DNA of 62,301 nucleotides, the filler included, from Bipalium vagum (Eukaryota): assembly GCA_037834085.1 (NCBI GenBank). It is 3 parts of 3 records of this genome, joined end to end, with 100 filler letters (N's around TTAATTAATTAA, not from the genome) between each part and the next. Parts side by side here need not be neighbours in the genome. Positions count along the whole stretch, not along the records: positions 22,506 to 44,798 come from JBBMKC010224117.1; 2 more parts are not named here. One strand, written 5' to 3'. The position numbers were made by a program, and so were the translations under genes. The notes under the pieces are model-generated. The model had not been told where the DNA came from, made no database searches, and saw only the letters and a list, made by a program, of their open reading frames with translations. Shown here piece by piece: positions 3,048-45,406 of the stretch. The first letter of the stretch is position 1, and each line of letters opens with the position of its first letter.

Positions 3048-3093
<46 letters not shown>

Positions 3094-12824: not shown

Positions 12825-12870
<46 letters not shown>

Positions 12871-15149: not shown

Positions 15150-15560
15150 AATGAAAGATTCTCTCAATCTTTTATTGCTAGATCGTGAATCCAATATTCC
15201 ATTTATTGGCTGTAAAACCATCTTTAAGAATCTGGATTTCTTTAAAAACATTAACTTTACCCAATTCCAATACTTTGTTTCGAGAATATTCTTATCAGTC
15301 CACTAAATTTTACTTCTGGCGACATTCAACCTCAACATTATATTGAGGTTTCCTTAAAACTCAAGTCGTATTTTATTTTCAACATTGGGTTTGTCAAACT
15401 CTCAACTTTAGGTTGCTCGATAAATACATTGTTGCTAGCCATTGATTTACTCAGTTCTCTAAATACTAATCGATTGACCAGTGGCGTTCCTGGTCGATAT
15501 AATTTGGTATTTTTCGTGTTTCTTAATGATTTTTTTTTATTTTTGATATTTGTTTTCATG
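15150..15560 (-). mobile_element. Probable Gypsy pol remnant
   Basis: Stop-riddled translation including ..DGFTANKWNIGFTI.., which resembles the pre-RT 'F..nkwdiG.t' segment. A similar segment occurs in the 44100-44660 copy. Confidence 0.35.
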
Positions 15561-16325
15561 TTTTAACCCTTTTTGTCGTTTTTGAAATAAAACATTACTT
15601 ATAATCTGAAATATTAAGTTCTTAAGATTTTTTACGCTTTACATTACTATGAAGCATTGTATCGTACATTACTGGTCCTTTCTTTTTGGTTAATAACATG
15701 TTTGGAAATAATTGAATCAAAACGACCACAATAAAACTTTATTCTATCAACACAGATGATCGACACACAGTAAATCAATCTCAACTGTAGAATGTCTCTA
15801 ATAAATCAAATATGACAAATTCAAAATCGATAAATCGATCCAAATATACTGAAATCAAAACAATCAATAAATATAAAAGTCAAATAAAATAAAATTCAGA
15901 TCAAAGTAATAAGTCAAATTTAATCAATAAGTTCGTTAATTATTAAAAGTAAAACAAAAACAAAGTGAAGATCTCATCACTTTAAGAAAAATCGCATAAA
16001 ATCGGGCTTAGTAAAAAAAATGATCACCAGTAATTTTCTTCCCACGTATTCTCTCAATGTTAATTCTCTTCTGTCGATAATTTTCTATTAAATTTTCTGA
16101 CACAACCGAATTCTTCATTTCTAAATTACCTTAACACTCCAAATAGTCTATTAAAAACAAATAAAAACTGAATTCTTTTTGTGGCAGTCTATTTAGGATT
16201 TCAGTGTCTTATACTGATCAGAGCACTATTCAATTGTAGACCAGTATTCTTAATTGGGAGTGTCAAATTCTTTTTTATGCACTTAATCCTAAATCGGTCC
16301 ATAAATAATTTATGAATCGGTCCTA

Positions 16326-16363
16326 ATCTAATCTTGACAATTCAATATTTGTCAAGATTAGAT
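16326..16363. repeat. Perfect 15-bp inverted repeat (hairpin, 8-nt loop)
   Basis: atctaatcttgacaa-ttcaatat-ttgtcaagattagat. Confidence 0.9.
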
Positions 16364-18559: not shown

Positions 18560-18900
18560 TCACAAAAGCGACAAAAATAATACTTGGAGGTTATATCACT
18601 GCCTGCGGGGTGCGGGGCATGAAAGAGAATATTCACGTACTAATGAAGGGAAAGCCTACCCAGTAATATGACTATTGTTACAAAGCCAAGCCAGAAACCA
18701 GTCTGAAGGGTTGCAATTGCAAATTATCCGGAGCCTGTGTCGTCACTAATTGGAAGAAATCAATTTCATTCATTTAAACAATAACGACAGAGAGAGCTTG
18801 TCTGACACTGGTACTGAAATCTGTCCCTTCATTTAAACGAGAATTAATGCAAAACAATTATTAATATTAAAAGCATTATCTTGGTAACATGTGCACTAAG
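18560..18900 (+). mobile_element. Probable LTR retrotransposon gag-protease remnant
   Basis: Decayed zinc knuckle LYHCLRGAGHERE followed by the aspartic-protease-like SLSDTGTEIC. Confidence 0.35.
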
Positions 18901-19199
18901 CCTTGAGTGATTTTAAAAAATTGTTCAGTAAAGGAGAAAAGTGTAATATAAAATGTAATAAGAAGGACGTGTAACAAAAATTGAGCTTTATTCGGGCTTC
19001 AAAGAATTCTTTTTGTTTATAATATCATTTAATAAAAATGATTATTAGAATAATAATTTTCAATTATTAATATATCCAAATAAATATTGATTGGATTGCA
19101 TTCCCAATAATCGGCATATTTTTGTTTTAAATCGTTAAATTAATCAATTTTCCCATTATGAAAGGTGTAATATTTTAAGAAAAGTCTAAAAGTAAGATA

Positions 19200-19480
19200 A
19201 TTATAATTAATGATTTGTTATAGAAGATATCCAGATGATAGCAGTTTTAAATGAATTGCAAAATAATTGAGAAAATATCAGAGAGACATTGGAATATGAT
19301 CTTATTGGATGAATTTTATCATCGTAAAAATCGATGAACGAAACTAGCTAAACGCAAATTTTACCATGGACATCAAGTAAATCATGGATGAACAGTTGAT
19401 GGGATAAAAGGTACAAATGAGGGAAACAGTTTCATTGTAGAAATAATAACCGTGGTGCAGATAAATTGACGAAAATAAAA
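19200..19480 (+). mobile_element. Merlin transposase fragment
   Basis: Frameshifted IVKIDE..LAKRKFYHGHQVNHG*TVDGIKGTNE..FIVE matches the Merlin VEIDESKFGKRKYxRG..WVFGG core. Confidence 0.7.
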
Positions 19481-20169
19481 AGGGACTAACAAACTGGGTG
19501 AAAGGGGTTACCTTTAAAAAAGGGTATTTTGGGTATTTTTGATTCACCTTAATAAGATAGTTTATTGCGATTATTTTGATTCAACCGCATATATATATAT
19601 TATCGAAGTACTTTTAGATTTAACCAACACGTTATCAACAAAGTGAGGAGTTAGGAAAGTTCAGCCTAAAGTTACACATTTCGATAGAGGAATAAATCAA
19701 TTTTATTCTCAACCAGAAAATATAATAAAAAAAGATCAAACAAATAATACATTTTCAAATAACTTTGATAAAAGAAAATAGTCATTTGGAAGGAAGAGAA
19801 GGAAAACAGTTGGATGGATTTGAAAACATAATGAAATCAATATTTAAATACCAAAATGAAGGAGGATCCTCGTATATCAAATTTATCATTATTTAATTAA
19901 ATAAATATAGAAATTTTAAAAAATAATGATATGAGTATATGAGTTAAAATATAGTGATATTTTTGATGAAGAAAAATATATTAATAAATTAAATTTAAAA
20001 ATAATAATTCTCCAATAAAAATAAATTATTTGAGAAGATTTATTAATCAAAATGATATTTTGCCATGTTTTAATTTTTTCTAAATTTTTCAATTTTTCTA
20101 ATTTTTTTGATTTTTTAATGACATTTTCGCAATAGTATAAAAATAGAAAAATCTGAAATTAAAAATTTT

Positions 20170-20823
20170 GACTGTATCGTAAAACTTGTTTCGACATTTT
20201 AACATTACTAATTTTATCTATAAAAAAATTTAATTACTAAAATAAATCTATAAAGGGATTTTATGTGGATTTTTCTCATATCATTTGCTGTTAAAATATC
20301 TGATAATTTCGTCCTTTTGAAAAATTTTGGAATCGATTTTCTCTTTCTGCATTCTAATAAGAAGTCTAAATGTTGATTGATTTTCTCAACTTTAATAAAG
20401 TATTTTCTATATTCCAAATATATTATTCTTAATCTTGTGAACAATATAAATTTATTTTTCGAAATTTATTTTTCCCATAATTATTCTGAATTCGTTCTCT
20501 TTAACTTTGCTTTTTCTTTCACCACAGTTTACTGAATGATCCAACACCTTGCTTGATCTGCTTGGTTGTGAATGCTCGCTAATGCGTGTTCTGAAATGAC
20601 TCTGTGTCTCTCCTATATAGATTTTTACATCCATGACTTGTAAATTGGTACACGACATTAGCTCGCAACACTATTGGTGTATGACCAATTTACTTGTCAT
20701 GGATGTAATAATCTATACATAGGAGAGACACAGCGTCATTTCAGAACACGCATTAGCGAGCATTCACAACCAAGCAGAACAAGCAAGGTGTTGGATCATT
20801 CAGTAAAATGTGGTGAAAGAAAA
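20170..20823 (-). mobile_element. Penelope-like element fragment: GIY-YIG endonuclease end, ORF N-terminus and an inverted copy of the GIY-YIG segment
   Basis: The minus strand encodes YIGETQSHFRTRISEH (GIY-YIG), followed by ..KINQHLDFLLECRKRKSIPKF (typical PLE N-terminus). The plus strand at 20684-20823 is an inverted copy of 20512-20649. Confidence 0.8.
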
Positions 20824-21179
20824 TAATTAGATTTTTTATTGTTTAGATATAATAAATCTTACTTAATTTAAATTGAAATTAATTTTTTGATTAATGTATT
20901 GTGCATGAAATATTTGTAAGGTTTTAAAATAACTTTTGGCTAACAAATCAACTAATTACTTAACATAAAACTATTTGTTATAACATATCAGATAATTAAT
21001 TCCAACTAATCATTGCCGAACTAATTTAAAAGTGAAATTATTTATATCTTATTATATAAATTAAGCGTTTGAAGATTAAATATTAAATGTAAGTACTTCT
21101 GTTTGTCAAATACTAAGATTTTATTAAAAAATTATTTAGTAAATTGCAAGATTAACCGACACCGATTAACCGACTACCA

Positions 21180-22096
21180 CGACACCGGAAAATCAAACAG
21201 ATAAATCGGCACTAAGTTAGAAAAGAATGAAAGTATTATAAGATACTTTTTGAAGAATAAAAATAAAGAAAAGAAGACACGGGGTCCTAAGGCGAAAAAT
21301 TCCGTAGCAACGAAGTGTTCCATTATTATGAATGCCAGTAGCTAAAGTGCGAAAATAAAAACGCTATTCAATATAAATTTGTCCGTACAGAGTATTAGAA
21401 AGATTTTAAAAAAATCTCGGACGATCCGGTATAAGAAGATGTTGGTAAAACCCCCTTTGAAGCCACAACATAAAATCAATCGTGTCTGCTGGGCTGAAGA
21501 GAAATTGTCGTGGGTCACCGAATGGGAAAAGATCATCTGGAGTGACGAGAAGAAGTTTAATTTGGATGGACTTGACGGTTACACATATTATTGGCACAAT
21601 TTGCGGAAGGAGGAGATATCTTTTTTGAATAGACACACTGGAGTAGGTTCCTTGTTGATTCGTGATTACCACGAGAAGTCAACTCTCGCGATTATTACCG
21701 GCAGGCTTAATCAATTTGATTATCAAATGCTTTTAGGAGAACATTTACTTCCTTTTATGGATGATTTTTGGCGTAGTCAAACCAATTTTTCAACAGGATA
21801 ATTGTCTATGCCATGTTGCACATTCCACTTTGCAATGGATGCCAGACAGAAATATCGATGTTATATCTTGGCCACCCTATTCACAAGACCTGAATCCCGT
21901 AGAAACTCTTTTGTGGATATTAGCACATTGGGTATATGCTAATGGGAAACAATATGAATCAATTTCAGAGCTGGCACGAGAGGTCATTCGCTGTTGGAAA
22001 GAAATCCATAACAGCGTCCTGACAGCACTGGTAAATTCTATGCCAAATAGAATTTATGAAGTGATTTATTTTCATGGAAGTTCAAATAAATATTAA
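21180..22096 (+). mobile_element. Tc1/Tc3-like DD34E transposase, frameshifted
   Basis: WSDEKKFNLDG..YYWH in ORF 21379-21801, then FQQDN..(34 aa)..WPPYSQDLNPVE in ORF 21761-22096. Frameshift near 21770. Confidence 0.9.
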
Positions 22097-22405
22097 TATA
22101 ATCGAAAAACAATTCAAAATATATTTTTTGTTATGATATATCTTTTTATAAATATGTGGTAATAAATTATTGTTTTTTTTTATTTCATTTATACTTTTTT
22201 TAAAAACTTTTTCATTATATTTTTTTTGTAAAAATAGATAGATATATATATATATATTTATATTTATACTTATTATATATATTATATTTATATATTATAT
22301 TTATTATATTATATTTATTATATATATATTTAATCTTGTGAACATCATAAATTTATTTTTTAAATAGACGCATTTCAATAGTTTTGAACAAATTTTTTCC
22401 AAACA

Positions 22406-22505
22406 NNNNNNNNNNNNNNNNNNNNNNNNNNNNNNNNNNNNNNNNNNNNTTAATTAATTAANNNNNNNNNNNNNNNNNNNNNNNNNNNNNNNNNNNNNNN
22501 NNNNN
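22406..22505. other. Assembly gap linker (44 N + TTAATTAATTAA + 44 N)
   Basis: Exactly 100 bp. The 12-mer places stop codons in all six frames. Confidence 0.97.
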
Positions 22506-22511
22506 ATAATA

Positions 22512-23741
22512 TTGTGTCGTCAAGTATGAAATTTGTAGGTCAATGTAAACAGCTGATTATTTGACAATTGATTCATATTTTACCATCCGGTTTTCTTCAG
22601 AAAGTTACATTCTTCGCCTTTTAAACAAATCAATATTATCTTTAAATAATAATGATTATTTCTTTTAATAATAAAATTATTTAAAAATGAAAGAAGCAGA
22701 AATTCGAATCATTATGAAATATGAATTTTCTCGAGGAACTGCAGCATTTCAGACCGCGCGAAATATTAATGGAGTATTTGGCTGCAGTGTAACTACATAG
22801 CAGACTGTGGCAAATTTTTTTGGTAAATTTTGAAAAGGTAAATTTGGCTTCACAAATGAGTTACGCAGTCCGCCAGTACCAAAGGTCTGTAATGACTAAT
22901 TAAAGGTCACCGTTGAGTCTGATCCATCTCAAAGCGTCCATAAATTATCCTTGAAGTCTGGTGTCAGTGCGCAAACAATATTATTTCATTTATCTCAAAT
23001 AGATAAAGTGAAAAGGCGGATAAATGGTTCCACATGAACTCAAAAAAAGAAATTAAAGCGTTTGGAATCCTGTTTGGTGATGCTTTCTCGTCACAAATCT
23101 GATCCATTTTTGAATCTTTCGTCACCTGTGACAAAAAATGGATCAAATATGACAATCGCAAACGTTCAGCACTATTGCTGGACAAGGATGAAGCACCAAA
23201 ACACACTTCAAAGCCTAAAATTCATCAGAAATATCTGATGATGAGTGTTTAGTGGTCTAGCTCAGGCATTATCAATTTTGATTTGATGAAACCTGAATCA
23301 TCGATTACCGCAGAAGTATACTGCAAGCAATTAAAGGATATGATGGAAAAACTTAAAGAAAAAGAGCCCGGATTGGTCAATAGATTGACTCTTATCTTAA
23401 TGTATGACAACACTAGACCACACAATGCACAAATGACTGTGACAAAACTGCAAGAATTAAAGTTGGAACTTCATCATTCTCCATAATCACCAGATATGGC
23501 TCGCACCGACTACCATTTATTTTAAAATTTGGAGAACTTTTAATAGGAAAGCAATTCAATTCTGATGATGGTGTAAAATTGGCCTTCCATGAAGTCATTA
23601 ACTCCATTCCACCAGGGTTTTATACAACCGGTATGAACAAGCTGCCGCTTAAATGGCAAAAGATGATTAGATTAATTCTTTGTGTTTGTATTTTATTAAT
23701 AAAATTTCTTTTTTTTACAAATTTCATAATTGACTATCCAA
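22512..23741 (+). mobile_element. Full-length defective mariner element
   Basis: TA-flanked TIRs ttgtgtcgtcaagtatgaaatttgta / tacaaatttcataattgactatccaa. Transposase runs from ATG ~22687 (MKEAEIRIIMKYEF) through WVPHE-like, VTCDKKW, YDNTRPH and SPDMA..TDYHLF motifs, with stops and frameshifts. Confidence 0.92.
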
Positions 23742-24912
23742 TATTATGAAAGAAATCGGGTGTTCAGAGATAATCTTAACAGGAAATAATCCCCAAATAT
23801 CCATTTAAAGGAGCAAAATGAAAAAGACAGATGCAACCCATCGTTTCTATGATTGAAGATAAAGTTTTTTAGGACGCCTTCCAAATAATGATTGGTCTCA
23901 AACATCTCGATCACTTAAGGAGTGCTACATTTGGGATAGGAAGAGATAGAGATGTCTCAACTATCAGCTCTTCAGCAAGATGTCTCTTGTATTATTGTTC
24001 TCAGTTGATCGAGCAACATCCCTCCCTCAAACCCAGAACCACGTCCTAGACAGAGTCTAATCTACGAGAAAGAAAAGTAGGCGTAATTAGAAAAAGTCGT
24101 ATCGAACGAAAAGAGGTTGCCAATGTCCCAAATTAATTATCATTTCCTTGGATGGGAATAAATTTCCCTTTCTCAAACATGCTTTGCTAATTTCTCCATT
24201 CGCTCATTCAAGCGCACAATGAGAAAATGGGGATAATTTATTAATATTTTTCCTTGTTTTAATTATTGGAAGATTTATTTAATTGTGAATTTTAAATCGA
24301 TTTTCGTATGAATCTTTGACCTAACTGGGCGAAAATATTTCAATTAGGCCTTCGTGGCTGAACGAGAGCAACGACCGTTGCCTTGGCTGAATTTAATTAG
24401 ATTTCTCCACATCTTATCACAGGACCCATCTTATCCAAGATCGGACTTTGATAAATAAATTTATTCTGATCAAATTTGTTTCGGTGGAACATAAAGACGA
24501 AATAATGTTTGAGAAAGAAACGATTTTTCCCCGAACAATTCTGTCGACGAAATCTTCATTAGTGAAAATTGTCGATTTTTACAATTTTATTTATTTTTCG
24601 AATCAATTTATTTATTTTTTCTCTCATTTAGAGCGAAATCAGCTGAGCAAAACAAATCTTGCCAAGGCCAAGTGAGAGTGGATTAAATTGAGAGGAGCTT
24701 CGTTTGTGTTTTCACTGAACTTTTCAAAAATAAATCTTTACGTATTTATTTATTTTTATTTATTTATAACAGTGTAATAAATAATATTTTTTATGTATTA
24801 TATTATAGAATGGCAAAAATATTACTGTTTTAAAAATAATATTATATTTTTTGAAATTCAGTCTTGTAGATACAAAATTAATAATATTAATAATAAGTAA
24901 TAATAAATATTA

Positions 24913-25436
24913 CCGTAGATACTCGAATATAAGTCGAGGTTTTTTTCTATAAAATTTGATGAAAAAAATAGGGTCGACTTATACAAGAGTCATAGCAGTC
25001 TTAACCAATATAATGGCTATATTTATGCAATGTATCACGCTGTGTTCATAATTGAATACTGGTTATAATTTATGTTTAGTTTTTTTTCCAGTGATAAATT
25101 TATTTCAAATTTGACTAATATAAATATGACTAATGAGCAGGCATTGTAACTTCTTCAATCAGACTCGGATTCCGAATTTTGTGGTTTTGAATAAATGTTA
25201 CCTATGATACCATGTTTGTAAATAAAAATATATAAATATTATCACGAATATTTTGCAATAACGTATCAAAAGATTGGCATTTTTTCCTTGTTATTTTCCA
25301 AATGTACGAAAGTGGAAACTACCCAGACATATAATTTTACCTCGACTTATATAAGAGTCATACGGTTTTTCACAGAATTTCCCATTTTTCCTCCTCGACT
25401 TATACACGAGGTCGACTTATATGCGAGTACCTACGG
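24913..25436 (+). mobile_element. pogo/Tigger-type non-autonomous element (MITE)
   Basis: TA|CCGTA...TACGG|TA ends, TIR ccgtagatactcgaatataagtcga, internal cgacttata repeats, and a retained acidic transposase tail SDSDSEFCGFE*. Confidence 0.85.
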
Positions 25437-25559
25437 TAATTATAAAAAATAATTATGAAATGATAAAATGAAAAATATAAAATAATATTGGCAATTAAAA
25501 TTATATAATAATAGAAAAATTAAAAAATAATATTAATAATAAAAACAACTAATAAAAAT

Positions 25560-26130
25560 ACCAACATATTGGCAACCATTTATTAAAGAAGATCAGACAC
25601 GTATATGCAGACGCTGTCATTCTGAGAATGAATCAATGAATCATGTGCTGCAAGTTTGCAAGATTAATCTTTTCCTATTTGGACAAAGACATGATATTTG
25701 TGTGGAAAAAATCTTCAATGAACTTCAAAGACCAGAACTGATTGTACAGAAAAATATACAATATCAAGAGGTTCATGACTCAAAAGGTACATGATCATTA
25801 CAAACGTAGAGAAGAAGATTATTTACTTGGTTGATATAAAATGTCCAATTGACCCTTTACGAAACTTTGATGTAAGTGATAATAAAAATATCGTAAGGTA
25901 TTCGGACTTGAAGAGAAAAATTAAACTGACAAAACCTGATTAAAAAATCCAATTGAACACGCTGATTATTGGATCTCTTGAGACAATAAATCCAGTTGCA
26001 ATAGACATTCTAATCAATATTAGAATTCAGAAAAGGAAATTAAGTGCACTCTTAAAGTCATGTGCAACATCAAATATTAAGCAATCGACAAAAATCTGGA
26101 ACCTCCATGCTACTGGATATTTGATTAACG
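25560..26130 (+). mobile_element. RLE-type (R2/R4/NeSL-like) non-LTR retrotransposon 3' fragment 1
   Basis: CCHC finger CRRCHSENESMNHVLQVC, then QRHD, ..IYLVDIKCP.., TLIIGSL and KIWNLH: restriction-like endonuclease architecture, frameshifted. Confidence 0.8.
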
Positions 26131-26199
26131 AGTTACTTTTCGGAAACAGGAACATAGATGAGACCACTATAATTCTCCAACAAGGGTTGTGTATTCACT

Positions 26200-26889
26200 A
26201 CCACAACAGATGGATGAGTCATGTGGGCCAAAGTCGGGTTTTGGGTTGTTCCTCAATGAGCGTTTGATCCAATAAAATCATGAGTACCAATACACTGCCT
26301 GCAGCGCATTGGTTTTTCATGATTAAATCACCGAGCAACAATTTGGCACTAAAGTTTCGTCCTCTGAACATTGTTAAGTGGAGAGATATCCATTGTAGAC
26401 TCTGCAAAACTATAGTAGAAACACAAGCCAATGTGCTAAATGATTGCCCCGCCCTCCTGCCCTCCCGCCTGCCCGGTCAAACCAACCAACCGCTAAACAT
26501 AATCACGTGTTAACTCTGTTGTTTAACTTTCTAAGGGACTCAGGATTAGACTTATACGTGGAGTGAAAACCACTCTGTATCCAAACCTAATTGTCAGACT
26601 CAAGGACAAGAAAGTTATCAGTCTCAACGATCTTAAAGGCCATATGATAAGCGTAGTAACTTCTCTGAAGGTCGTAAAAGAAACCATAAGAAATATGAAG
26701 GACTTGCAACCTCCAAAACAGTCAATATCTAAAAGATTAATCTCAAGTGCCTCGGCTCTTGGGATCCAGAGAATGATAAGGTCCTGGATGATAAAGGAAA
26801 AGGATATACATAGATTATCAACCGAAATGATTGTGTCCGTTAGCGCCCAATCATATCATATTTATCTACAATATGTAGTTAAGGGTTGA
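26200..26889 (+). mobile_element. RLE-type non-LTR retrotransposon 3' fragment 2
   Basis: CRLCKTIVETQANVLNDCP, then YPNLIVRLKDKKV (PD..D-like) and ..SYHIY terminus. The sequence is divergent from fragment 1. Confidence 0.65.
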
Positions 26890-26901
26890 CAATCTTAATA
26901 T

Positions 26902-28196
26902 ATCAGGTAACGAACTAAGTTTTTTCGTTTTTTCAGTTGTTTAAATTTGTTAGGCCCTGAGATTCTCATTTATCTATCAATGAAAATTTTCTATATTTTA
27001 GTTTGCTGCTTAAACATGTGTTTCAAATACACTGTATAATTAATGTTATTAACCATTATCTTCTGGAATAGGTGCTCCAAAAGGTCGGTGGACAAATCAC
27101 AAATTCGAGAAATTATTTATTACGAATGGAAAAATGACACAAACACAAATGAAACTGTCTCAAAACTTAACAAGCGGCTTGGTGAAGAAACAATGCATCT
27201 GCGAACCATGCAAAATTGGTTCAAAAAATTCAATAGTGGCGATTTTTCATTGGAAGACAAAGAGAGGTCTCGAAGGCCAAAAGAGTTAAAGGATTATCAA
27301 ATTATGAACCTTCTTGAACAAAACAGATCAATTAGTACTAAACAAATCGCTTATGAGTTAAATATGAGCAATAAGAAACCGACTGAAAGCGTTAGGATTC
27401 ACTTGTAAACTCGACAAATGGGTTCCCCACCAAGTAGCTGAGAAAAATAAGTTGGGTCGCATTGAAATTTGTTCAAGACTACTCGAAAGAAACTGAAATG
27501 ATCCTTTTCTCGACCGAATAGTCTCTTGCAATGAAAAGTGAATCTATCATGACAAGATAACCAGACGAAGATCGTGGTCGTTATATGGAGAGCCTCCAAA
27601 AAAAATTGAAAAACAAAACCTTACTTGAAACAAGGTTCTTTTATGCATTTGGTGGGATTCTCGTGGAATTATTTATCAGGAGTTTCTCAAACCGGGGAAA
27701 CCATTAATTTTGATGTCTATTGTGACATGCTACGAAGAGTTCATACCAATATGAAGGAAAACCGAAGCAGTTTGAAATACCGAAAAAAGTGATTTCCCAC
27801 CAAGATAATGCCAAGTCTCACAAATCAATTGAGACATTGAAGGTTATTCAGGAATTGAACTGAACCCTAATGGAACATCCGCCATATAGTCCTGATATCG
27901 CCCCATTCGATTTCTATTTGTTCAGGGTATTACAGAATCACTTGATGGGTAAAATTGTTAAAAGTTCCAAAGGTATTTAGAATGAGGTACTTTCTTTCAT
28001 TCAAAAGATCGAGATTTCTTTAATACTATGATCAATAAACTTCTATATAGATGGGAGGCAGTAATAGAAAAAGATGGGGAATATCTTGATGATTAATTGT
28101 TTAATAATGTTTTATGATTAATAAATTAAATTTAACTGATTCAGTCTTAGTTTAGTATTTAATTATAAAACGAAAAAACTTAGTTCGTTACCTGAT
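26902..28196 (+). mobile_element. Full-length defective mariner element
   Basis: Perfect 30-bp TIRs atcaggtaacgaactaagttttttcgtttt. HTH ORF (QNWFKKFNSGDFSLEDKERSRRP) plus WVPH, HQDNAKSH and HPPYSPDIAPFDFYLF motifs, with disablements. Confidence 0.95.
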
Positions 28197-29269
28197 TAAA
28201 AGTACTTTTTCTCTCTATTATCATCATAATACATATTATATTAAGTAGAGCATCACTTATTACAATTAATTAATAAGAGAAACATAAAAACAAACTTTAT
28301 TAACTTAAGTAATCACAATCTTCTTAAACTATCTAATTTTAAGATTTTAATAAAACCACCTTTAATAAAAAAAATCTTCTCTTAATGAAAACTTTATAAA
28401 TTTTTTATGTAAAATAACTTTAAAAAAAAATTTCTAATTCTTTAAAAACTTCGTTAACCTAAATAACTGAAACCATAACAAATTATGTATTATATATGTT
28501 TCTTTTTATACGGTATTTTTCTCAAAATGTTCTTTTTTTATTATTCTATATATGTTATAAAATTTTAAAAAACGTAATTCTATCCAGGGCTTAGTAGTTT
28601 GACCCCCAAGGCTCAGGTTGAGAAAAATGGTCAATAATTAACCCTCAATGAATGAGTCAAGGAATTGTAGCCTGATTCATTCGTTCATCTACACGGCAAT
28701 ATCCTGAATTAACCAAACAGAAAGGCTAAAGACAGGAGGGTGAAAAGGGATATAACAATGGGATTTTCTTTTCTTGAACATATGGTATTTTATGTGTGTA
28801 AAAACTTTTTATATTGAAGAGTGGACTTTACTTTTATTCCTAAAAGAGTTAGTAAATTTTTCTGAATGGCTTATTCACAAGAAAAATTAACACAAAAAAA
28901 AGTCACTAAGATATTTCGAAAACTCATATATAAGGTCTTTGTTTTTATTTTAAAGTTTTTGTGATGATTTTAATTTTATGACTTAGGATATTTTTCGGAA
29001 TAACTAGGGACTGGTGTGTTAAGGGAGTTGTGAATTCTCCCTTCTAGACTCAAATAAGTTTTTTTGTATTGGTTTTCTTTTTATGTGTAAATGATGAATA
29101 TGTTAAATGTTTTGTGTTCTGCGCTACCAAAGATTGGTGAAGAACAAACGAAGACAAAAATGCAAAGATGACAAAAAAAAGAGTGAAATAAACTAAGTAA
29201 AGATCAAAAAGAAATGAAAAAGAAGACGGTGAAAAAGTGTTGCTTTTATTTTTGCGGCATTAATGGTTT

Positions 29270-29830
29270 TTGATTGTTTCCATCCTCTATAATTTTAATC
29301 AGTGGTGTACAGTGGTGGATTCACGTTTCATCCATAGTACCTAAACGGTGCATAGAATCTGTTTTATTATGATTAAATCGATCCACACATAATTGAGAAA
29401 ATTGCATGCGAATGAGCTTAACATTGATTTTTAGCAGATGCAGCACCTATCTTGCACAAAGGTTTTTTCATCTTTAAATTTTCATGAAAATATGTCAAAC
29501 TCACTTAACTGAAATTTTAGTAGCAGAACCTATTTTTCACACCTTTATCCATTGATCATCCGACACCATTGATTTCTTGAATGATTTGTGATGTCGCAGT
29601 TTTTTGAGCTTCCACTGTATGGCTCATCCTCAATTATCATATATCCACGTCTCAAGTACAAAGCCCACCTATGAATTGTTGATAAAGAAGGAGCAACGTC
29701 TCTTAATACTTTGACCATCTTTGTATAGATTTCTGTTGTGAATAATCCTTCTAGGATAAAGAATTTTATGATCAATGGATAGTCAATTTTGTTTCATTTT
29801 ACAATGAATGCCGCCAAGTCAAATTAAAAT
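29270..29830 (-). mobile_element. mariner fragment
   Basis: IIKFFILEGL..TIHRWA..EDEPYSG (HTH) and TMDET*IHH. Confidence 0.8.
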
Positions 29831-29989
29831 ACGTAATTTAAACAAATTAGTTTAAAAATTGAAATGGTATTATAAAGATCAAATATTAAAATGGGTTACA
29901 CACTTTTGACTTATTGTTAATTGAGTCACACGCTTTCAAAACTTTCCGAACAACTTTCGTAATTTAAAATTATAAAAAATTTCAGAAAA

Positions 29990-31560
29990 GTTGCATGAAT
30001 TCCAAATTGGCTCCAAAAGCAATAAGAAACCAGAAAAGGAAGAGTCAAAGAGCCACAGAATGTGACAAACTTGCAAGTTTTGAAAAACTCCAAGTAAAAT
30101 ATAATATTCTTACACCAGAACTTCATGATGTTCAGTTGGAAACACTTATTCATTTAGATCCATTGAAAAGCAAATGGAAAGTTGTGAGAGTTATCAATGT
30201 GGATTGTGTATAGTTCCTCGACATTTAAATAAAATTGAAATAGATACCTTTAAACAGAAATATTTCCTTTCTTGATGTGCTATAATGAATATTCTTAACA
30301 ATTTCCAAAATCAGTGATGTACTCGAAAAAGATTTTTTTGTGGTCTGCCAATTATCTCATTCATCACAAGTTTCTGAATGAGAAACTAACTACCGACGGG
30401 TTTGTCCAAGAAATAAATGTAAAACGTCATCATAAAGGTACATAAAATTTTGTAATTTTGTATATGAAATACTTGATCATGCTCCATACTAACAGGATCT
30501 GGGTTCAATAACGGATTTTAGTTTTTGCAAGCAATTGGGGATTTGTATTCGTGAAGAATGCTAAAAAACAAGGAAGGTGTAAAATCGACTTTCAGAATTT
30601 TTCATTTGTAGAAGTACATGGTGTTTCATAATTAGCGCAAAATTTAAAAATACTATTATCATATTTTAACTATAATGCATCAAACGTGGATATTATATAT
30701 TTCAAAATATACACCAATATATGGGATTTTTTTACGTAATCATTAATCTTTCGGTTTTAAACTTTAGATGGATACTGCAGCGTGCATTGAAATTATTAGA
30801 ATTTTTACATTTCTGGAGAAAGCCCAAGGACAACCATACGTGCATACAAATCAGATCACACGGCCCTAGATTTTTAGTTTAGCGGTCTAATAAAAGTCAG
30901 AGTTTATCATAGTTATATTCTTGTGCTGTCACTTTTAATAACAATATAAGATCAAATCAATAATTATAAATTTCATTAAATCTGATTACTCAAACAAACT
31001 TTTCAAACTGGACTTCATCTTCTTTTAAAATTAAATTATTTACTTTATAAAATTTACCAACATTTATTTAAATATTTAATAAACCGTAACTTAATAATTT
31101 TTAAAAACTTTAAATTAAAAACATTTAATAATTGTTTAATAATATGCAACTATTTATTTGAATCACTCCTTATAATCATCATGAGAAACCTTCAACTGTG
31201 GATGAACTGAAAACACGAATTACACAGGAATGTGCTAAAGTCAGTGATGTATTTTTATGCCGTTGGAATAATGCTGCTTACCTCCCGCTAATAAAAGTGT
31301 CTGCATTCCAAAGCATTATATTTTTATTAAAAATTTTCTTAAACTGAGTTACTGCATTTCAAAGTATTTGCAAAAAACCGGCCAGTATTCTTGTACCAAT
31401 CTAACCCATTAGTTAAATATGAATTACATTTTTTCATGTAATTTTGTAAAGTTTTAAAGTTTGGGAAAAGTGTATGAAATTTTCTTTCCACATTTTTATG
31501 GATAAACCTCAGCAAAATGAAATGTCTGCACTCTGTCAATTACGAGAAATGCTGTCTTCA
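29990..31560. mobile_element. Highly decayed Tc1/mariner fragments
   Basis: + strand ILDHAPY*QDL (~30470) and PSTVDELKTRITQEC (~31190); - strand HTH-like VERKFHTLFPN (~31480). Confidence 0.5.
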
Positions 31561-32189
31561 TCAAGATTATCTTTGTGATTATTTTATGTTATATGATTAC
31601 CTTTATCAGATGAATTTGTTGAACCTATTCCTATGGTCTATGAGAAATAAAAGCAGAACCACTATGAAATTATTTCATGGAACGACATTTATGTAGTTTT
31701 TGTAATGGAAACATTCAACGAGAAATAAGCTGATTATTGTAATTATTATGGAATTTCGGTGTTTGGATTCAATAAACTATCGGATGGCATCTCCTGGGAA
31801 TATCCTTTTTTTCTCTTCAAGTTTTCCAGTTGTTTTTCTTGGCCCAAAACTGTTAGCTAGCTTATATTTAAAACTATTGCAAATTCCGAGTTGTTTTTGT
31901 TGCAAATATACCTTAACCAACTCTTTCAAAATGTTGTTCATTGTATATAGACGTCAGTAGATAGGAAAGTAATAAACGCGGCCAACAACCCAACAACGTA
32001 AAACTATTGTGTTTCCTCAATCACCTTTTTTCTTCTATTTCAATTTTTCATGATAAAAAATGTTTCTTAAATACTGGGTTGTCGATCGCGTTTATTACTT
32101 CTCCATCTATTACTTTTATCACACCCCCTCATCATCATAAAACACAAATATATATAAAATATTACTATAAAAATAAATGATACCAAACT

Positions 32190-33010
32190 GGAAGCTTTTT
32201 ATTGTGATATTTGTAATCAATATTTTAAAGCGAAATAAGCTTTAATATCTCATAAAAAATCAAAAGAACATTTAAATAAAATACACTAATTAATAATCAA
32301 ATAACCTTATTTGATGAATCACCTCAACATCAAACTCGACCAGCCATTCTTTCTCTTCTTAGGTTAGACCATATATATTATTCAATCAATTTATTTTCTT
32401 TAAAAGATGATAAAAAATAGTATTGTGAATTTTGTAAAAAATATATCTCTAAAAATTTCATTATGAAGATACAATAAACCATGAAAAACTAGACAATGAA
32501 AATACAAAGACAATAAAAAACGAAAAAACGATAAAAAGCAACGATTAAAAAGTGGAACATAAGAGCAAAAAAGAAGTTTTTAATATTCAAGATTTTCAAC
32601 AAAATACTCAATTAAATAAGAGATTCACAATCAGTAATTACAAATAATAATTTTTAAAATAAATTTACAACAGGAAGACATCCAGGAGAATTACATTTGA
32701 AATTTTTTAACAAAACAAATGTTACACACTAATTTACGGAACCTAGGTCGTATATTGATAAAAATTTAGACAACTTTGATGAAAAAATAAGTAATTGTGA
32801 AACAGAATTGAATATTCTCCAAATTCCTACATTCTATTCCAATAAACAGAATAGACCAAGCAGTAATGAAATATGATGTAAAATATATGTTAACAGATTT
32901 ACAAGATTGTCAAGTTTCCTATGTTAAAATTATTCATGAAATGAACATTATTCAAAATCTAACTTCAAGAGAAAAATTTGAAAGAGATTTAGTAAAATTA
33001 ATCATGAGGA
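32190..33010 (+). pseudogene. Decayed Zn-finger and parvovirus-type phospholipase A2 (PLA2X-like) gene within the Polinton
   Basis: FYCDICNQYFKAK*ALISHKKSKEH (matrin/U1-type finger). RHPGELHL..H*FTEPRS resembles the Y.F.GPG calcium loop, and PINRIDQAVMKYDVKY resembles P.N.LD.AA..HD..Y. Confidence 0.65.
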
Positions 33011-33149
33011 CAAGGTCGTCTTCAACTTAGGAGAATTACATCCTCCAGCTGCCATAGATCTAGAATGAAGGAGTTGCAAAAATATTGCTAATGAAAAACT
33101 ATTTGAAAAATGAAAAGAATTAGAACCAGAAAATTGAAACAAAATTAAC

Positions 33150-33950
33150 AAATACATTTTATAAAGAATTTTTAAAACCAAAATAGTATCTTAAAGTTAA
33201 GGTTTTTAATAAAGATGATATTTGTAGTGCATATTTAACCTTTGTACCATGGGAGAAAGATAATAAAAGAATATTCACAGTTATTAATTTATTAAAAGAT
33301 ATGGTTTTGCTATAACTTTAAAAAATAAAACTGGAAAATCTATAACAGATACCTTCGATGAAATATTCTAAGACTACCTAAAAAATTTTGGTTGATAAAT
33401 GGTACTGAATTTTACAATAGAATATTTGAGTATTTTTGTGGTGATAATGAAATAGAAAATTATTTAACAGAGAATGATGGGAAAACTAATGTCATAGACA
33501 GATTTAATTAAATTTTGAAAAATATGATGTTTTGAAATGTACAGAATAAGGAAAGAAAAAGTGGTTTTATCTTTTACCTCAATTAGTTAATTTTTATGAC
33601 AATAATATTCATAGAATAATTGCTATTTCTCATAATGAAGCATCCAACGAAGTTGTCAGAGCCTTCAGTTAATCAAGGAAAGCTGTCAAAGCTTTCAGTC
33701 AATCCCATGAAGGTAGCAGAAAAAATTGACCGTTTGAAACTGAAAAGAAAATTCAATATAGGTGATAAGGTTCGAAATATAAAAGAATAATTTAAATATA
33801 AAAATAAATTAATAAAAAAGGTTTCACAATAAAATAAACAGAACAAATATTTATTATAAATGAAGTTTATTATATAAATCCAATTGCTTATGGAACTATT
33901 GGCATAAATGGTGATAAATTATTAAATACATTTTATTGAAAATGAGTTGG
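33150..33950 (+). pseudogene. Decayed Polinton-type retroviral-like integrase
   Basis: LKNKTGKSITDTF..PKKFWVDK/GTEFYN..VIDRFN*ILKNMM..KW..LPQLVNFYDNNIHRII..KFNIGDKVR..EQIFII..FY: the full rve core plus the Polinton integrase C-terminus, with many stops and frameshifts. Confidence 0.85.
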
Positions 33951-34210
33951 AGTGATTTTATTTGAAAAGTATTGATAATACTGGGTGGGTTGAAATTCGG
34001 CTTGTTCCAGTTTTTTTATATGGGTCAAACCAAAGGTCATTTTAGATATAAGTATTTAATTTAATTTATTATGTTTTTAGATATTTAAAATATTTTAGAT
34101 ATGAAAGTTTATGGCGCTCTTTAGGACCAAATTTATAAATGTATTATTCTGGAATATTGAAAGAAATATCAATAAGTAAGGAAATTTTATTGAAATATTA
34201 CAAAATACAA

Positions 34211-34560
34211 TTATAGATAAAAGTTATTCCACAAATCATTGCTATTTTTTCGTCTACATATGAATTCCAATAAGTGAGGTGCAATAAAACTGGTCATATT
34301 TATTATTGTTGTCTGTGGAACTTGGCATATCAAAAGATATGATAGTAACAGAAATTCGTGAGCTTTTACATTTCTTTTTTCCAAAGCAGTGTTTCGGAAA
34401 ATACGAATTTCTTTTTGACATATTTTACTGTAGCACCTATAAGATTTCCTTTTTAGGTTTATGGCTACAATTTGATCACAATCACAGCGGTTGTGGGTTG
34501 TAATTATCTGCTTTTCAATTAAGTAACTAATAGCATTCTTCGGATGAAAAAATAACAAAA
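34211..34560 (-). mobile_element. Merlin transposase N-terminal fragment nested in the Polinton
   Basis: AISYLIEKQII..RCDC..SYRCYSKICQKEIRIFRNT..LLLSYL matches the Merlin Zn-ribbon region. Confidence 0.7.
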
Positions 34561-34625
34561 AGATCTAAAATTTTGGGAATTGATAGATTCATTTTACTAA
34601 AATTTAAATAAAATTTTTGATAATA

Positions 34626-34855
34626 TCAGGCTGTGTAGTATGAAATTTTTAAAATGAAAAACAATGTTTTTTAATAAATTACAAATAAAAGAAACTAAGA
34701 TTTATACTTTTTCAGATTAAAATATTTTCAAACAAGACATATATATAATTTACAAACGCAAAAAACAGAATGGTAAAATATCAAGCCGATACCAAATAAA
34801 CAACAATTAAAGTTAGCAATTTCATTACCTACAAATTTCATACTATACAACCTGA
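34626..34855. mobile_element. mariner-derived MITE (230 bp) nested in the Polinton
   Basis: TA|tcaggctgtgtagtatgaaattt ... aaatttcatactatacaacctga|TA. The TIR resembles that of the mariner at 22512. Confidence 0.85.
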
Positions 34856-35491
34856 TACAATCTCTATTTAGACTTACATTGCGAGGTTTTTCAAAAAATA
34901 TTTTTGAAGTTTTAAAAAATCTAAAAATTTACTATGATTAAATTATTGTATTTAAACAAAATGGGAGTAAACAAAATTTACTCCACTGGGTGAGTTAAAT
35001 AAAATATTCATTTATATTAGTAATATTATATTTCTATTAATAAAAATAATAATTATATTTCACATTATCATCTAATATATTTAATTCATAATATTATTCT
35101 GAGCATAAAGACAATTTTAATTTTTTATGGTGCCTAGCATTTAATATTTATATTTTAAATATTTTTAAAGGTTATGGTTTAAAATTTTTACAAGTATTTA
35201 AAGTCCTGTTGCATTTCATATTGATTTATTAAATACTGACATGTTTTTTGGGTATTATGATGTTTTAAAACATTATAAAAATAGTTAATTAAAATCGGTC
35301 AAGGTTTTTTCAATTTTGTTTACCTGAATTTTATTTCAGCTAAAAACGTTGACTGTTTTAATTGGATAATAAATTTGTTAGTGTTATTAATGATGATTGT
35401 AAGTGTTACTTTTTAAGGCACTCGCAGTGAAGTATGTGCATCAATGTAAAAATCTTTAATTTCGAGCTATCATTTTAAATATTTAGTTATT

Positions 35492-35529
<38 letters not shown>

Positions 35530-36779
35530 TATATTAGTTATTTATATAATATAATATTTAATTTTTGATGACGAGGGGTATGTGATGTAAGAAGATGAAG
35601 TAATAAGGTGATCGACAACCCAATAATTAAGAAACATGTTTCATTATGAACAGCTGAAATGAATCGTAGAAAGGTAGTTGAGGAAGCGTGACCGCTTTGG
35701 TTGTTCGCCGCAATTATTACTTTCCATCTATTGACGTCCACGACTTTTTCATTTCGTATTTCTTGATAAACATAAATGAGCTACGTTGACACTACAAATG
35801 GCCCCGTTTACGACTCATTGGAATGTTTTGAATTCGCATAGCAAAATCGCTCCTAAAATTATTATATTATATTATTATTATATTATATATATTATATCAA
35901 ATTTTGAAATCTTCAATAAAAATGGGGATTTATCAATTAATATTAAAACAAAGACCGCATAAAAATATATTTATATAAATTTGACTCGTTATTAGGCATT
36001 TCATTTAATAATTCCTTGGATACCGTGAATAAATTAGCAAAATGGAAAAATAAAATCAGAAAATTTGATTTTGGATAAAAATAATTTTCTGTCTGTGTTT
36101 ATTTTCTGACGACGAATTAATTTCAGGAAAAATTGAGCTTTGCTGCGTCATATATTAAAAGTCAAAAGAACTTGTTATTAATTTTCTGGTGCAATTTTAT
36201 TGATTTAATAAAAATAATTCGACTGAATCAATTTACGAATAATTGTATTAGTTATCTTTTAATTATGTTCAGTTTTTCAAAGCAATAAGCTTTGGAAAAA
36301 AAATTTTTTTTAAGTGTGACCATAAACAGAATCTCGTATTTGAAACAAGGTTTCACAATCTTTGACAATTAAATTCAGGAAGTATAAACTATTTCTGGAT
36401 TATTCAAAGACTTAGAAAGGCTGTGGAATAAGCTATAGACCAAATTAAACTAAAGACCCAAAGGGGTAAAATCACCAAGAATTGGAATTCGAATCGTGTC
36501 TCTGCATAGTTGCTTCAGAGTCCCTTTCACCGTTGTCCATTTTCCTGAACGAATCTAACGTATTTTCACTAAGTTCTAAATTCAATGTATTTATACTTTG
36601 TTCTTGACAGCGATGACAATTAATGTAAAAACATTATTTTGAAAAGAAATGTAATTAGAATAAGAAATGTACTTAGAATGAAATCTTGTCACATGATACA
36701 AATGAGTTCAACTTAGAAAACACAATATCAAGTAAGTATCTGATTTTGAAATGTTACACAGTAAAATATATCCAGCATA

Positions 36780-37960
36780 CGACTTCAAATTGTTGAACCA
36801 CTAACCTTTATTTATTCAAATTAAATATTTCTGTTCACAATGACCAGTAACTTTATTACGCTTATGTAGATGGATGACGTCATATTTTATTGAAATATCC
36901 CTCGGCTATAAGAGATATTTGTCACCAAATATTATTAAAACAGTTTTAAATAATAGCAGCTTAAGGACATTGTTTACGATGCAAGTTGAATTTCACCAAG
37001 TTATTCGTTTTTTGTTTCTAGGGAAGACAGAAAAGCGATATTCAGCTACGTAGATCATATGGAAATAAAGCTCCACACAAGGCTACTACTTTTACCTAGA
37101 TCAGTGAGCTTCCAGAAAATATGTGCTTGATGAAGAAAGATTTGAACAACCATATGAAACTGAAGAAAAGAAACTAGAGAAATTAAGCATTGTTGAGAAA
37201 TGAGAAAAATGGATTACTCAAAGAGAAATTTATTAACATGTGAAGAAAAAATTATAGAACATACTGGAGAATATTGGGAATAGAAAATTATGAATTCGAT
37301 TCAGTCCAATTTTTTGACATCAGATATGTGAGAAAAGCAAATGCAAGCCTGCCAAGAAGACATGGCTCCATTCCATGCTCTTGGAAAGATTTTTTTGAAG
37401 AATATTAAAACGGAAAATGAAACGCCTTTGAATGTGTATGTACTGTACAGCAAGTTGAATTTCGTGAATTGGTTAAATTATTCAGAGGAAGCCACCAAAA
37501 ATATTTTGTTCAAAGATATTTAATCGAGATAGTCTTATGCTTAGTGTGTTTTGAGATGAGAAGAGGTGTAATCATAACCGATCTTACTCAGGAATTCAAC
37601 TACCACAGCATACTTGTTAGTGCTGTGAGAAAGTTGCGGTAGAAGCCAAAAAGCAAGAGCTTTTCTTTTGCATGACAAAGCTCCAGTTCACACATATCGC
37701 CAATATACAAAAAGACTCTTAGATAACTAAGATAATGGTTCCATCAATTTTTTTCAGATTAATGTTTACGCAGATTTATAACGTTGATTTCCTACATGTC
37801 AAGAATGGTATTTGTTTACCATGGATTTTGATTTAATTATGAAGATAATAAGCAAAATAAGAATAGTATACCACTTATCATAAAACTTTCCATTTCAATT
37901 GTTGCAAGGTTGTTTAAACTACTGATCGAAGGTGAAGTATTATAATAAATTGATATTAAC
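36780..37960 (+). mobile_element. Decayed mariner
   Basis: MQVEFHQVIRFLF (~36979), FLKNIKTENET and LLHDKAPVH motifs. Confidence 0.7.
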
Positions 37961-42680: not shown

Positions 42681-43351
42681 AGGTAATAGAAAAGAATAGT
42701 AACACTTCTATGTAATTTAAATGTATATAAATTTGGTATTTAAGTTAAAATTTAAGAAAATGTAAAGGTTAAAAGCAAAAAATAAAAATTTAAATACAAC
42801 ATTTTAAAATGAAATGATAAAATTTAAACCGTTTACCTTCGTACATCTGACATCGTTCATTTCCTTTGTAAGGCCAGCTATATTATATTAGCACAGGCTT
42901 TCTTAATTAAATCGGCTATAAAATTCTTATTCCTTTTTGAGTCATAACATGTGATCTGAGATTCTTGTTTCTTGCGAGTTTTCCATAATTAATATAATCG
43001 ATAAGAATAATTTAGTTAAACCAATGAAAGTAAAATTGATTTTATAAAAATATTTTAAATTTATCTTTAACACCTTGAACAATACAAAAATATTAATATG
43101 ACAAAAGAAACCAGATATTAATTAGAAATTCTCAAAATCAATATTAAAATTTGACTCATAAAATTATAAAAAAATATCCATCGAACAAAAATATTGATAA
43201 AATAATTCTAAAAACACTTGTAAAACATTGAAATAAAAATGAAGCACAGAAATATTAAGGAATACCCTTTTAAACATAATATATACAATCAGTAATTTCA
43301 TTGGGTAAAATAAATTTATATTTCTATAAGCTGTTCAAATGTTCATTTAAA

Positions 43352-45406
43352 ATGCGTTTTTTCATGTACACTGTTTTTAATGTTTTAATAATTATTATGG
43401 ATGAAAGTAAAGGTTCAGAAAATAAACCTTTTACACAGATATTGCCCAAAGGTTGCAAATTACCAACGACAATATCAGAAAGAAATCGTTCAAAAATGAT
43501 AAAAAAGGAGCAACATGCAGTACCGGGGACCAATTTAAAAATGCAAGGAAAAATGACAGAGCAGAAATGCATTGAAGATTGTCATAAAAATCCGAACTGT
43601 TTTAGTATAGATTTTGGACCGACCTTGTGTTTTCAGAATGGGTTTTCAAAGGTATACGTTGAAATAACATACAAAGGAACCCTTTTTTATTATGCCATTT
43701 GCAAAGGTAATTATTATTTGTTTTATGAATAATGTTTAATTAATTATATAAAATATTTTATTTATTAATTAAATAATTTATTTTATATTTAGTAAATAAT
43801 ATAATATTATTTTAAACGCTCTATTTTAAAATGTATTAAAATATATTATGACAATCTGCCATGTTTTGTTATGAAAAATAAATATTTTTGAAGTATTGCT
43901 CTTTTTTATATTTCGAGAAGACATCTCTTGTATAAAATTTATTATTTCCACAACTTACCAAAATCTGCAATTATTTAAACAAAAATCGATTATTCAATAA
44001 ATTAATATAATGCGCCTTTTTATTTTCAAATATAAATGTTTACAAAATATCATTTTAGAATTTAATAAAAAAATATTAAAATATAATAAAACAATCTAAG
44101 CATTTTCAAATATCAAACCTGTCATTCTGTCACCGAATTTCAAAAAGTCTAGATACTGTCTGACGTCTTCTTTTTTCCACTGTCAAATTAGTGGAGTGTT
44201 ATATGGCGGATTGCAACTTCTTACAATTCCATTCTCAAATAAATTCATTATTACATCGTCATTTTTTTCTTCTAAATGTATCTACTGTTTTTTTATTGAT
44301 TGTTACGCCAGTAGTTTTGATTTCGCGTTTCATCAGTTTTGTATATCTAATATCCTAAGCATTTGGCATGACTGCTTCTTTCTTGTTTTTTATGAATTCC
44401 AACAAGTTCTTGTCTTCGACGAGAACTAATATTTCCTCATCTTTAAAAATATTCTAAACCTTTCTTCAATGCTACAAATCTCTGTCTCCTCCATTTCCAC
44501 TGGAATCTTTATTAACTTAAATTATAACTTTGTCAAAAATTCTGTTCTTTCAATTATATCTGGTGAAACTTGCTCTACTATCGTGAATGAAATTGACTTA
44601 CTTCTACTTCCAATGTAAACATCAACTGTTAAATATCCCACAACATTCATTGCCCTATAATACAGTGCAACCCGCTTAATATCACGGCGTCCGTTACAGA
44701 AAAGGTCATGATATTAACCGGGTCGTGATATTAACCATCAACTCGCTTTATATCATGATTCATGATAATAACCGAAAAAAATGATTTTTTAAATATCGNN
44801 NNNNNNNNNNNNNNNNNNNNNNNNNNNNNNNNNNNNNNNNNNTTAATTAATTAANNNNNNNNNNNNNNNNNNNNNNNNNNNNNNNNNNNNNNNNNNNNCA
44901 GTGATGCAGTTTTTAGAGAATAAATCTCCAGAGTTCTTTAAATCGGCTTTCATTGAGTTGGCTGCTCGCTGGCGGTAATGTGTCAATGTACATGGTAACT
45001 ATATAGAAAAATAAAACCTCTGTAATGTGCCTGTTATGTTAAATAAAAATTATAATATTCGTTCATCTCTTTCTATGCTAGTTTCACTACTTATTGGGCG
45101 CACCACGTATCATTTCTATAAAATTTCTAAATCTTAAAAACATTTATCTAATTTATTTCTTTTCTTTTTCTTCTATTTTCTTATTTAATTCAATGTTTTA
45201 TTTTTTATCTTCTATAATTTTATTTCAAATAGGTTTCGAACATAGTGACACAAAATCTAGTGCGATCCTAAATAAAAGTGATAATCCCAATGATCTGGCA
45301 AATAACCTAGTTGACAAATCATTGAGTTCTGAAATCGCCAGGCCCATTATTGATATTAATGAAGCTTCCGGTTCAGGGAAAATTACAATTGTTGAGATCA
45401 ATACAG
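43352..45406 (+). CDS. Secreted PAN/apple-domain protein (exon 43352-43706; probable exon 45233-45406; possible last exon 49883-49899)
   Basis: Signal-like MRFFMYTVFNVLIIIM and PAN pattern TEQKCIEDCHKNPNCFSIDFGPTLCF. The phase-1 donor at 43707 fits the phase-1 acceptor at 45233, whose exon ends phase 1 and fits a terminal (G)CT-PNEN* exon at 49883. The join crosses an assembly gap, so exons 2-3 are tentative. Confidence 0.6.
44100..44660 (-). mobile_element. Gypsy protease/RT 5' fragment
   Basis: MNVVGYLTVDVYIG..FTIV, then LFENGIVRSCNPPYNTPLI*..KKE..VRQYLDF (RT motif GII..S.SP.N.P...K..G..R.C.DF). Confidence 0.8.
44663..44798 (+). mobile_element. pogo/Tigger-like element end, truncated by the gap
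   Basis: TA|CAGTGCAACCCGCTTAATATCAC followed by gatattaacc subterminal repeats. Confidence 0.6.
44799..44898. other. Assembly gap linker (44 N + TTAATTAATTAA + 44 N)
   Basis: Identical design to the gap at 22406. Confidence 0.97.
44899..45108 (+). mobile_element. mariner 3' end with TIR
   Basis: FLENKSPEFFKSAFIELAARWR*CVNVHGNYIEK*, then TIR ..acttattgggcgcaccacg|ta. Confidence 0.8.

Follow-up and report, generated by a model that had tools for sequence, protein, structure and literature searches.

We think that the 3.8-kb locus at 31950..35738 of a stretch of Bipalium vagum DNA (assembly GCA_037834085.1; the whole 62,301 nucleotides analysed are called the window here) is an old, dead and internally deleted copy of a Polinton-type virus, put at a GACGTC site by its own rve integrase, and that it still has both ends, the stub of a zinc finger, and a broken gene in which a zinc finger, a phospholipase A2 and the integrase are fused. 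We give this reading a probability of roughly 0.78. What supports it directly is the pair of inverted arms, the hexamer that flanks them, the fusion gene with its decay, the nesting of a Merlin transposon and a miniature inverted-repeat transposable element (MITE), and the intact relatives of the gene, which sit among polymerase, ATPase and capsid genes. The relic measures 3,777 bp, or 2,772 bp once the Merlin insert is subtracted, and so lies below the 13-25 kb of Polintons (also called Mavericks); the present-day locus is likely, we predict, to have no activity at all.

Ends, target site and a decayed fusion gene

The ends and the genes between them are laid out as follows.

31950..31955, no strand: GACGTC, left copy of a likely 6-bp target-site duplication (palindromic); similarity stops exactly outside it
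31956..32146, plus strand: left terminal inverted repeat (left arm), tip AGTAGA; 73% alike to the right arm (E 5e-23), 143/171 aligned bases
32075..32109, minus strand: inverted copy of the left arm's tip, pairing with 31958-31992 (83%) in a ~155-nt stem-loop
32197..32271, plus strand: decayed matrin-type C2H2 zinc finger, a first-gene remnant inside the left arm; Pfam zf-met E 1e-4, 23 bits against a cut-off of 21.2
32407..33955, plus strand: decayed zinc finger-phospholipase A2-rve integrase fusion gene, no chromodomain; 45% identity to the open reading frame (ORF) of locus L007, profile E 9e-36
35558..35732, minus strand: right terminal inverted repeat (right arm), tip AATAGA; its inner inverted copy is more decayed
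35733..35738, no strand: GACGTC, right copy of the likely target-site duplication; similarity stops exactly outside it

Comparison of the window with itself (blastn) pairs 31950-32176 with the inverted 35738-35525 over 233 columns, and the local score of the two arms is 146, against a maximum of 40 among 300 shuffles. The well-aligned arms, 175-191 bp long, are interrupted by 14 gap blocks; when the left arm was set against 828 tiles of the window, the right arm scored 120 and the best tile outside the arms 34, and the 62 kb hold no third copy. Further extension inward, past ~32146 and 35558, is not significant (38 of 500 shuffles reach the score). In both arms the tip, A(G/A)TAGAT, recurs in inverted orientation ~120-155 bp inward; the left stem-loop folds with a z-score of -5.8, reached by 0 of 200 shuffles, and the right one with a z-score of -1.65, which 13 of 200 shuffles reach and which is not significant. 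Since it is present in both arms, the inner tip copy was probably already part of the parent element, and our guess would be that it arose as a fold-back duplication during end replication or forms a putative second site bound by the integrase or terminal protein. A single match to the arm pattern, in a 130-kb viral contig, lies in coding-looking DNA and was taken as chance.

Beyond the two GACGTC copies the similarity is lost at once: the adjoining hexamers match at 1 of 6 positions (P 0.0006 at 84% arm identity; ~0.007 at 73%, by hand calculation), and flanks of 2-10 bases agree at 0-3 bases. Because there is no repeat outside GACGTC, and because the left end begins AGTAGA, which agrees at 5/6 positions with AGTAGT, or (AGT)2, the hexamer is most likely a target-site duplication and not the tip of the element, a judgement based on one locus. 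Vertebrate Mavericks make 6-bp duplications, have ends of 46-1,447 bp with (AGT)2 or (AG)3 tips, and consist to 96% of degraded loci (PMC8097293).

The fusion gene is best recognised through its relatives. Residues 5-432 of a 441-aa ORF in L007 align to 32421-33936; this frame-aware alignment had no shuffle control, and significance is provided instead by a profile of intact relatives, which finds one locus in the window, with its best piece at 32830-33942. The phospholipase A2 family PF08398 reaches E 0.004 on 32812-33027, under its cut-off, and a Pfam scan of the six whole frames recovers a weak zinc finger only. A one-frame reading of the integrase used as query found six proteins (E 9e-10 to 6e-5), four of which carry PF08398 ahead of rve while the other two are short and begin within the integrase; a word-based protein search with a one-frame reading gave no match. 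It is by way of the relatives, too, that the rve family PF00665 is matched, the window copy being decayed. No chromodomain family occurs among the 15 closest members, and the window gene ends where chromodomain-less relatives end. Depending on which of three queries is used, the alignment shows 4-7 stops along with 6-11 frameshifts, and it leaves both the DDE positions and the histidine of the lipase unmatched in the window copy (the glutamate is located in 2/3 queries); judged by these lesions, the gene is dead. The separate zinc finger starts ~50 bp inward of the left arm and weakly matches (E 0.008) the zinc-finger ORF that precedes pPolB in L023.

Within the fusion gene, 33003-33078 repeats the AGGAGAATTACAT of 32684-32696, and other copies in run X1 (the one public run that contains the stretch, possibly the window's source and hence no independent support) differ across this segment, a local replacement with template switching as a possible cause.

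An earlier note on this DNA had described ~180-bp inverted homologues (~31956-32142 and ~35562-35732) with ends AGTAGAT/AATAGAT and with similarity ending at GACGTC on both sides, and had proposed a Polinton-type origin; the observations stand and the origin is supported. Its account of the interior as a decayed Polinton-type integrase was incomplete, since zinc-finger and phospholipase A2 domains are fused ahead of the integrase.

Relatives of the gene and known systems

We compared 83 related loci, some of them redundant, using pPolB, ATPase and capsid queries that came from seven of these loci and scanning 80 of the 136 listed ORFs for families. These queries are matched in 40 of the 42 loci of at least 3 kb; against the window they give nothing below E 0.2, and because the pPolB gene is absent the window element is a derivative, not an autonomous member. 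The best of the 83, L007, has capsid, pX-like and ATPase genes; ATPase and capsid genes are also present in L017, L018, L028 and L082, and the pPolB family is matched by L018, L023 and L028. Three of these loci (L017, L028 and L082) are 15.6-16.4 kb long with inverted ends, and in them the gene is separated by 5.4-7.1 kb from one end and by 7.1-9.3 kb from the opposite one, compared with ~260 and ~600 bp inside the arms of the window relic. A zinc-finger-like ORF comes first in L017 and L022 (by eye), as it does in the window. No protease family was matched among the 80 ORFs scanned, no inverted repeats lie closely around the gene in the 52 related loci of at least 2.3 kb (most of them fragments), bacterial and archaeal genomes hold no relative, and viral contigs contribute five distinct and more distant loci.

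Several details of these loci may be recorded in their own right. In L017 the zinc-finger-like ORF begins inside the inverted repeat at both ends (39-3884 and 15696-16385), and 3898-5064 is a gene resembling a poxvirus intermediate transcription factor (PF05718, E 2e-20). Just upstream of the fusion gene of L006, ~60-bp tandem direct repeats (1-270) are possibly terminal DNA. In L082 (7066-8477) the lipase, with DUF5679, and the integrase are adjacent, slightly overlapping ORFs, either a split form or a frameshifted copy.

At the protein level, 104 of the best 120 listed of 677 homologues of the top protein carry both PF08398 and rve, a count biased by a query that has both. The homologues align to the window from 32622 onward; 11 of the 120 start with a zinc finger, and 9 of these 11 rank within the 14 best tblastn matches to the window, the five best (P0052, P0031, P0049, P0059 and P0098) including three of them. 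Among 85 related loci, 50 have lipase and integrase in a single open frame and 18 have them in separate frames; in the remaining 17, many of which are short, the lipase is undetected. The DDE triad and the lipase H, D, Y and D positions, which we take from parvovirus phospholipase A2 to be catalytic, are invariant in 32/32 intact relatives. A confident structural model of one intact relative, P0062 (mean pLDDT, the predicted local distance difference test, 83), has as its nearest structures a MELD virus integrase (E 3e-18) and the foamy virus integrase, in a fold search dominated by the integrase part.

Placed among known systems, the relic resembles Polintons/Mavericks (adintoviruses, Polintoviricetes) in its rve integrase, in inverted ends within the reported range, in the likely 6-bp duplication and, in part, in an AGT-type tip, and it resembles their genomic fossils in decaying through stops, frameshifts and insertions. 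It differs from them in having 2.8 kb of element DNA with no pPolB, ATPase, protease or capsid gene, in the fusion of zinc finger and phospholipase A2 to the integrase, and in the tip that is copied in inverted form within the arms. The integrase also lacks the C-terminal chromodomain that adintovirus integrases carry (PMC11071296). Also comparable are Ginger1/2, IS3EU/GingerRoot and IS481EU, short elements whose inverted ends enclose a retrovirus-like DDE enzyme, and IS3EU/GingerRoot give 6-bp duplications; these elements, however, end in TA..TA or TG..CA (PMC10045372), whereas the window gene's relatives sit in capsid-encoding genomes.

Nested insertions, copy number and rival readings

The remainder of the interior is made up of later insertions and a spacer.

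33980..33987, no strand: ACTGGGTG, left 8-bp Merlin duplication, read in the sequence
33988..34984, minus strand: internally deleted Merlin-like transposon with GG...CC ends, which are 17/27 alike; remnant of the transposase N-terminus at 34211-34564
34626..34855, no strand: TA-flanked mariner-like MITE inside the Merlin, 21/23 terminal bases matching (by eye); highly repeated in run X1
34985..34992, no strand: ACTGGGTG, right 8-bp Merlin duplication, read in the sequence
34993..35557, no strand: AT-rich spacer with a (TA)n run near 35483-35536; no match to related loci

Merlin transposons are defined by terminal GG and duplications of 8-9 bp (PMC8101967), and the 997-bp insert has terminal GG, ~27-bp ends and an 8-bp duplication, ACTGGGTG, of which three copies were found in the window where ~0.3 would be expected. 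Unlike Merlin transposons it is internally deleted, with ends that match poorly. Its transposase remnant (34211-34564, minus strand) has no Pfam match, the catalytic domain (DDE_Tnp_IS1595) being undetected, and the ESM Atlas leads to IS1595/Merlin clusters at 0.82-0.86, which we treat as leads only. The MITE, 230 bp long, looks mariner-like by its TA flanks and end motifs. One run X1 contig, with 11 differences, covers 33376-34044, including the integrase/Merlin junction, and is either the other allele or a second copy with the same Merlin.

If these pieces are put in order, the starting form was most likely a 15-16 kb Polinton-type virus, or a deleted version of one, that integrated at GACGTC, the 6-bp duplication being made at that moment by the integrase of the element or of a relative. 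Some 12-13 kb of the 15-16 kb parent would have been deleted, probably on both sides of the integrase gene, leaving the ends, the zinc-finger stub and the fusion gene. The Merlin insertion would have been the next event, with the MITE brought along inside it or acquired later, and neutral decay would have come last, leaving arms that are now 16-27% apart. As fossils go, the locus is of a common type and shows little more than a clean nesting order of Polinton, Merlin and MITE.

Run X1 also bears on abundance, with the reservation that summed contig depth at 80% likeness is not copy number, and that copies more than 20% apart would escape it. Depth is ~24 in the flanks and 500-15,700 over the fusion gene (20-700 times the flanks), with the zinc-finger stub bin at ~28 times the flanks. 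Over the outer arms it is 45 on the left and 55 and 15 on the right, or ~1-2 times the flanks; the inner-arm bin reaches 379, ~17 times, and includes low-complexity DNA, and the MITE bins (34516-34843) reach 18,000-30,000. In this genome, then, related integrase sequences are numerous and close copies of the arms are few. Contigs without differences span both element junctions, and none of the 15 of 160 joints shown skips the element.

Several observations weigh against a deleted Polinton copy. The abundant integrase copies in run X1 do not share the arms' ends at 80%, and the arms have no match in the related loci (best E 0.2). In six relatives the first 650 bp contain no inverted repeat of the tip within the arm, though these contigs may lack the tips, and each arm resembles a 155-bp unit with terminal repeats of its own. 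The right tip, AATAGA, agrees at only 4/6 positions with the known (AGT)2 motif, and a palindromic hexamer has a chance of ~2.6% at the composition of the window.

The alternative that survives best, though we consider it unlikely, is that the 2.8-kb form made up a mobile family in its own right, a minimal transposon with an integrase gene between two arms, moved by its own or a helper integrase. What survives is exactly the ends and the integrase, with a clean duplication; the gene region and the zinc-finger stub are repeated in run X1, where the 11-difference contig could be a second copy; and Polintons that lack the polymerase and stay mobile have been reported (10.1101/2025.02.07.637071). 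Set against this are the outer arms near single-copy depth, the 0/52 loci with inverted repeats tightly around the gene, the virus genes in 40/42 of the larger loci, and an intact-looking lipase domain, for which a capsid-less transposon would have no obvious use. Because the arms are near single copy at 80% likeness, both a large young family of the short element and a young MITE family are disfavoured. A second and less probable possibility is that the arms are two independent ~155-bp MITE copies with 35-bp terminal repeats, which face each other by chance around a Polinton fragment or once moved it as a composite transposon. The inner repeat of the tip, 120-155 bp inward in each arm, is the best argument for this, together with the fold of the left unit and the depth of the inner-arm bin; however, arm similarity continues ~35 bp beyond the inner repeat in both arms, the left 155-bp unit has no duplication of its own because it is followed by ACTTTT and not GACGTC, the window holds no third arm, and the depth of the true MITE at 34626-34855 exceeds that of the arms about a thousandfold. 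Least credible is the caveat, raised earlier, that palindromic GACGTC, which is readable as part of an inverted repeat and is richer in GC than the host DNA, is the tip, the true duplication having decayed or never been there: the palindrome is needed under both readings, this one additionally requires the loss of an outside duplication where the hexamers share 1/6 bases, and the sequence directly inside GACGTC fits an AG-type end motif.

Other claims of the earlier note can be judged at this point. An abundant, independent ~150-bp MITE, which it had said would overturn the pairing of the arms, is not what run X1 shows, the arms being at low depth at 80% likeness. A Merlin fragment and a mariner MITE as later insertions are supported, with two corrections: both ends of the Merlin are present, bounded by an 8-bp duplication, and the MITE sits within it. 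The description as a non-autonomous derivative is right in that pPolB, ATPase and capsid genes are absent; the short form may or may not have moved as a family, and a one-off deleted copy fits equally well, because at 80% likeness the arms are near single copy and the integrase is present in many repeats. A literature search for internally deleted Mavericks found no paper; Repbase holds non-autonomous Polintons.

Elsewhere in the window there is a young-looking mariner element (26902-28196) with a perfect 30-bp inverted repeat (26902-26931 and 28167-28196) and a Mos1-type helix-turn-helix at 27040-27408, and a frameshifted Tc1-like transposase at 21346-22096. A forkhead gene, which we take to resemble FoxJ1, lies on the minus strand at 12111-14651, its domain divided between two exons ~1.2 kb apart, and matches one forkhead protein at 85%. 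PAN domains and an RPEL repeat mark further host genes at 6718-7155, 43280-43732 and 56377-56697; taken with the forkhead gene, in DNA rich in AT and in transposons, they point to an animal. Positions 36766-36868 and 52973-53075 form a 103-bp direct repeat, 73% alike.

The lipase-integrase fusion

The more interesting question is what the fusion does in the lineage from which this relic came. Its lipase is of the parvovirus VP1 type (PF08398), as in the PLA2X/CAP genes of insect Mavericks and Alpha adintoviruses (PMC8502044, PMC5803895, PMC4642659), but in those elements it forms a gene of its own, in many cases linked to a pX-like domain, and in L002 and L007 the pX-like genes are separate. 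Group 2 Maverick-Polintons, whose gene content is variable, commonly have a phospholipase domain, listed as a capsid-associated gene (10.64898/2026.06.19.733378); by gene content alone, our relatives resemble them in having pPolB, A32 ATPase, double jelly-roll capsid, pX-like and SLATT-like genes. The section of that source covered here mentions no integrase fusion. More broadly, no description of a lipase-integrase fusion was found in the portions of text available for PMC8502044, PMC3671162, PMC4642659, PMC5803895, PMC11131425, PMC11161782, PMC11071296 and 10.64898/2026.06.19.733378; genome maps in figures, supplements and Repbase may show it, and Pfam already co-annotates the fusion, for example in the coral protein P0105.

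We predict that the fused lipase is active in the intact parent lineage. Polinton lipases have been proposed to be packaged and to aid entry or membrane penetration (PMC4642659, PMC8502044), and if these proposals hold, the fusion would bring the integrase into the particle. Most simply, the fused lipase would provide membrane escape at entry and also keep the integrase attached to the particle as it comes in. The helical domain might instead act as an N-terminal domain of the integrase, an idea that gains from the absence of the HHCC motif in Polinton integrases (PMC10045372). We would therefore raise only tentatively, as something possible and rather less than probable, the idea of an undescribed and widespread Polinton lineage with a working phospholipase A2 of the parvovirus type fused to its integrase, in which a single packaged protein breaches the endosomal membrane and integrates the incoming genome before viral gene expression, in the manner of a retroviral pre-integration complex.

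Should the 2.8-kb form turn out to be a family, it would represent a virus shrunk to a plain integrase transposon. As it stands, the relic itself is ordinary, and the locus is valuable mainly as a pointer to an interesting lineage. No Polinton virion has been observed so far, and how and when the integrase is delivered is unknown (10.64898/2026.06.19.733378); a natural fusion of a proposed entry lipase to an integrase makes it possible to test directly if the particle carries the integrase.

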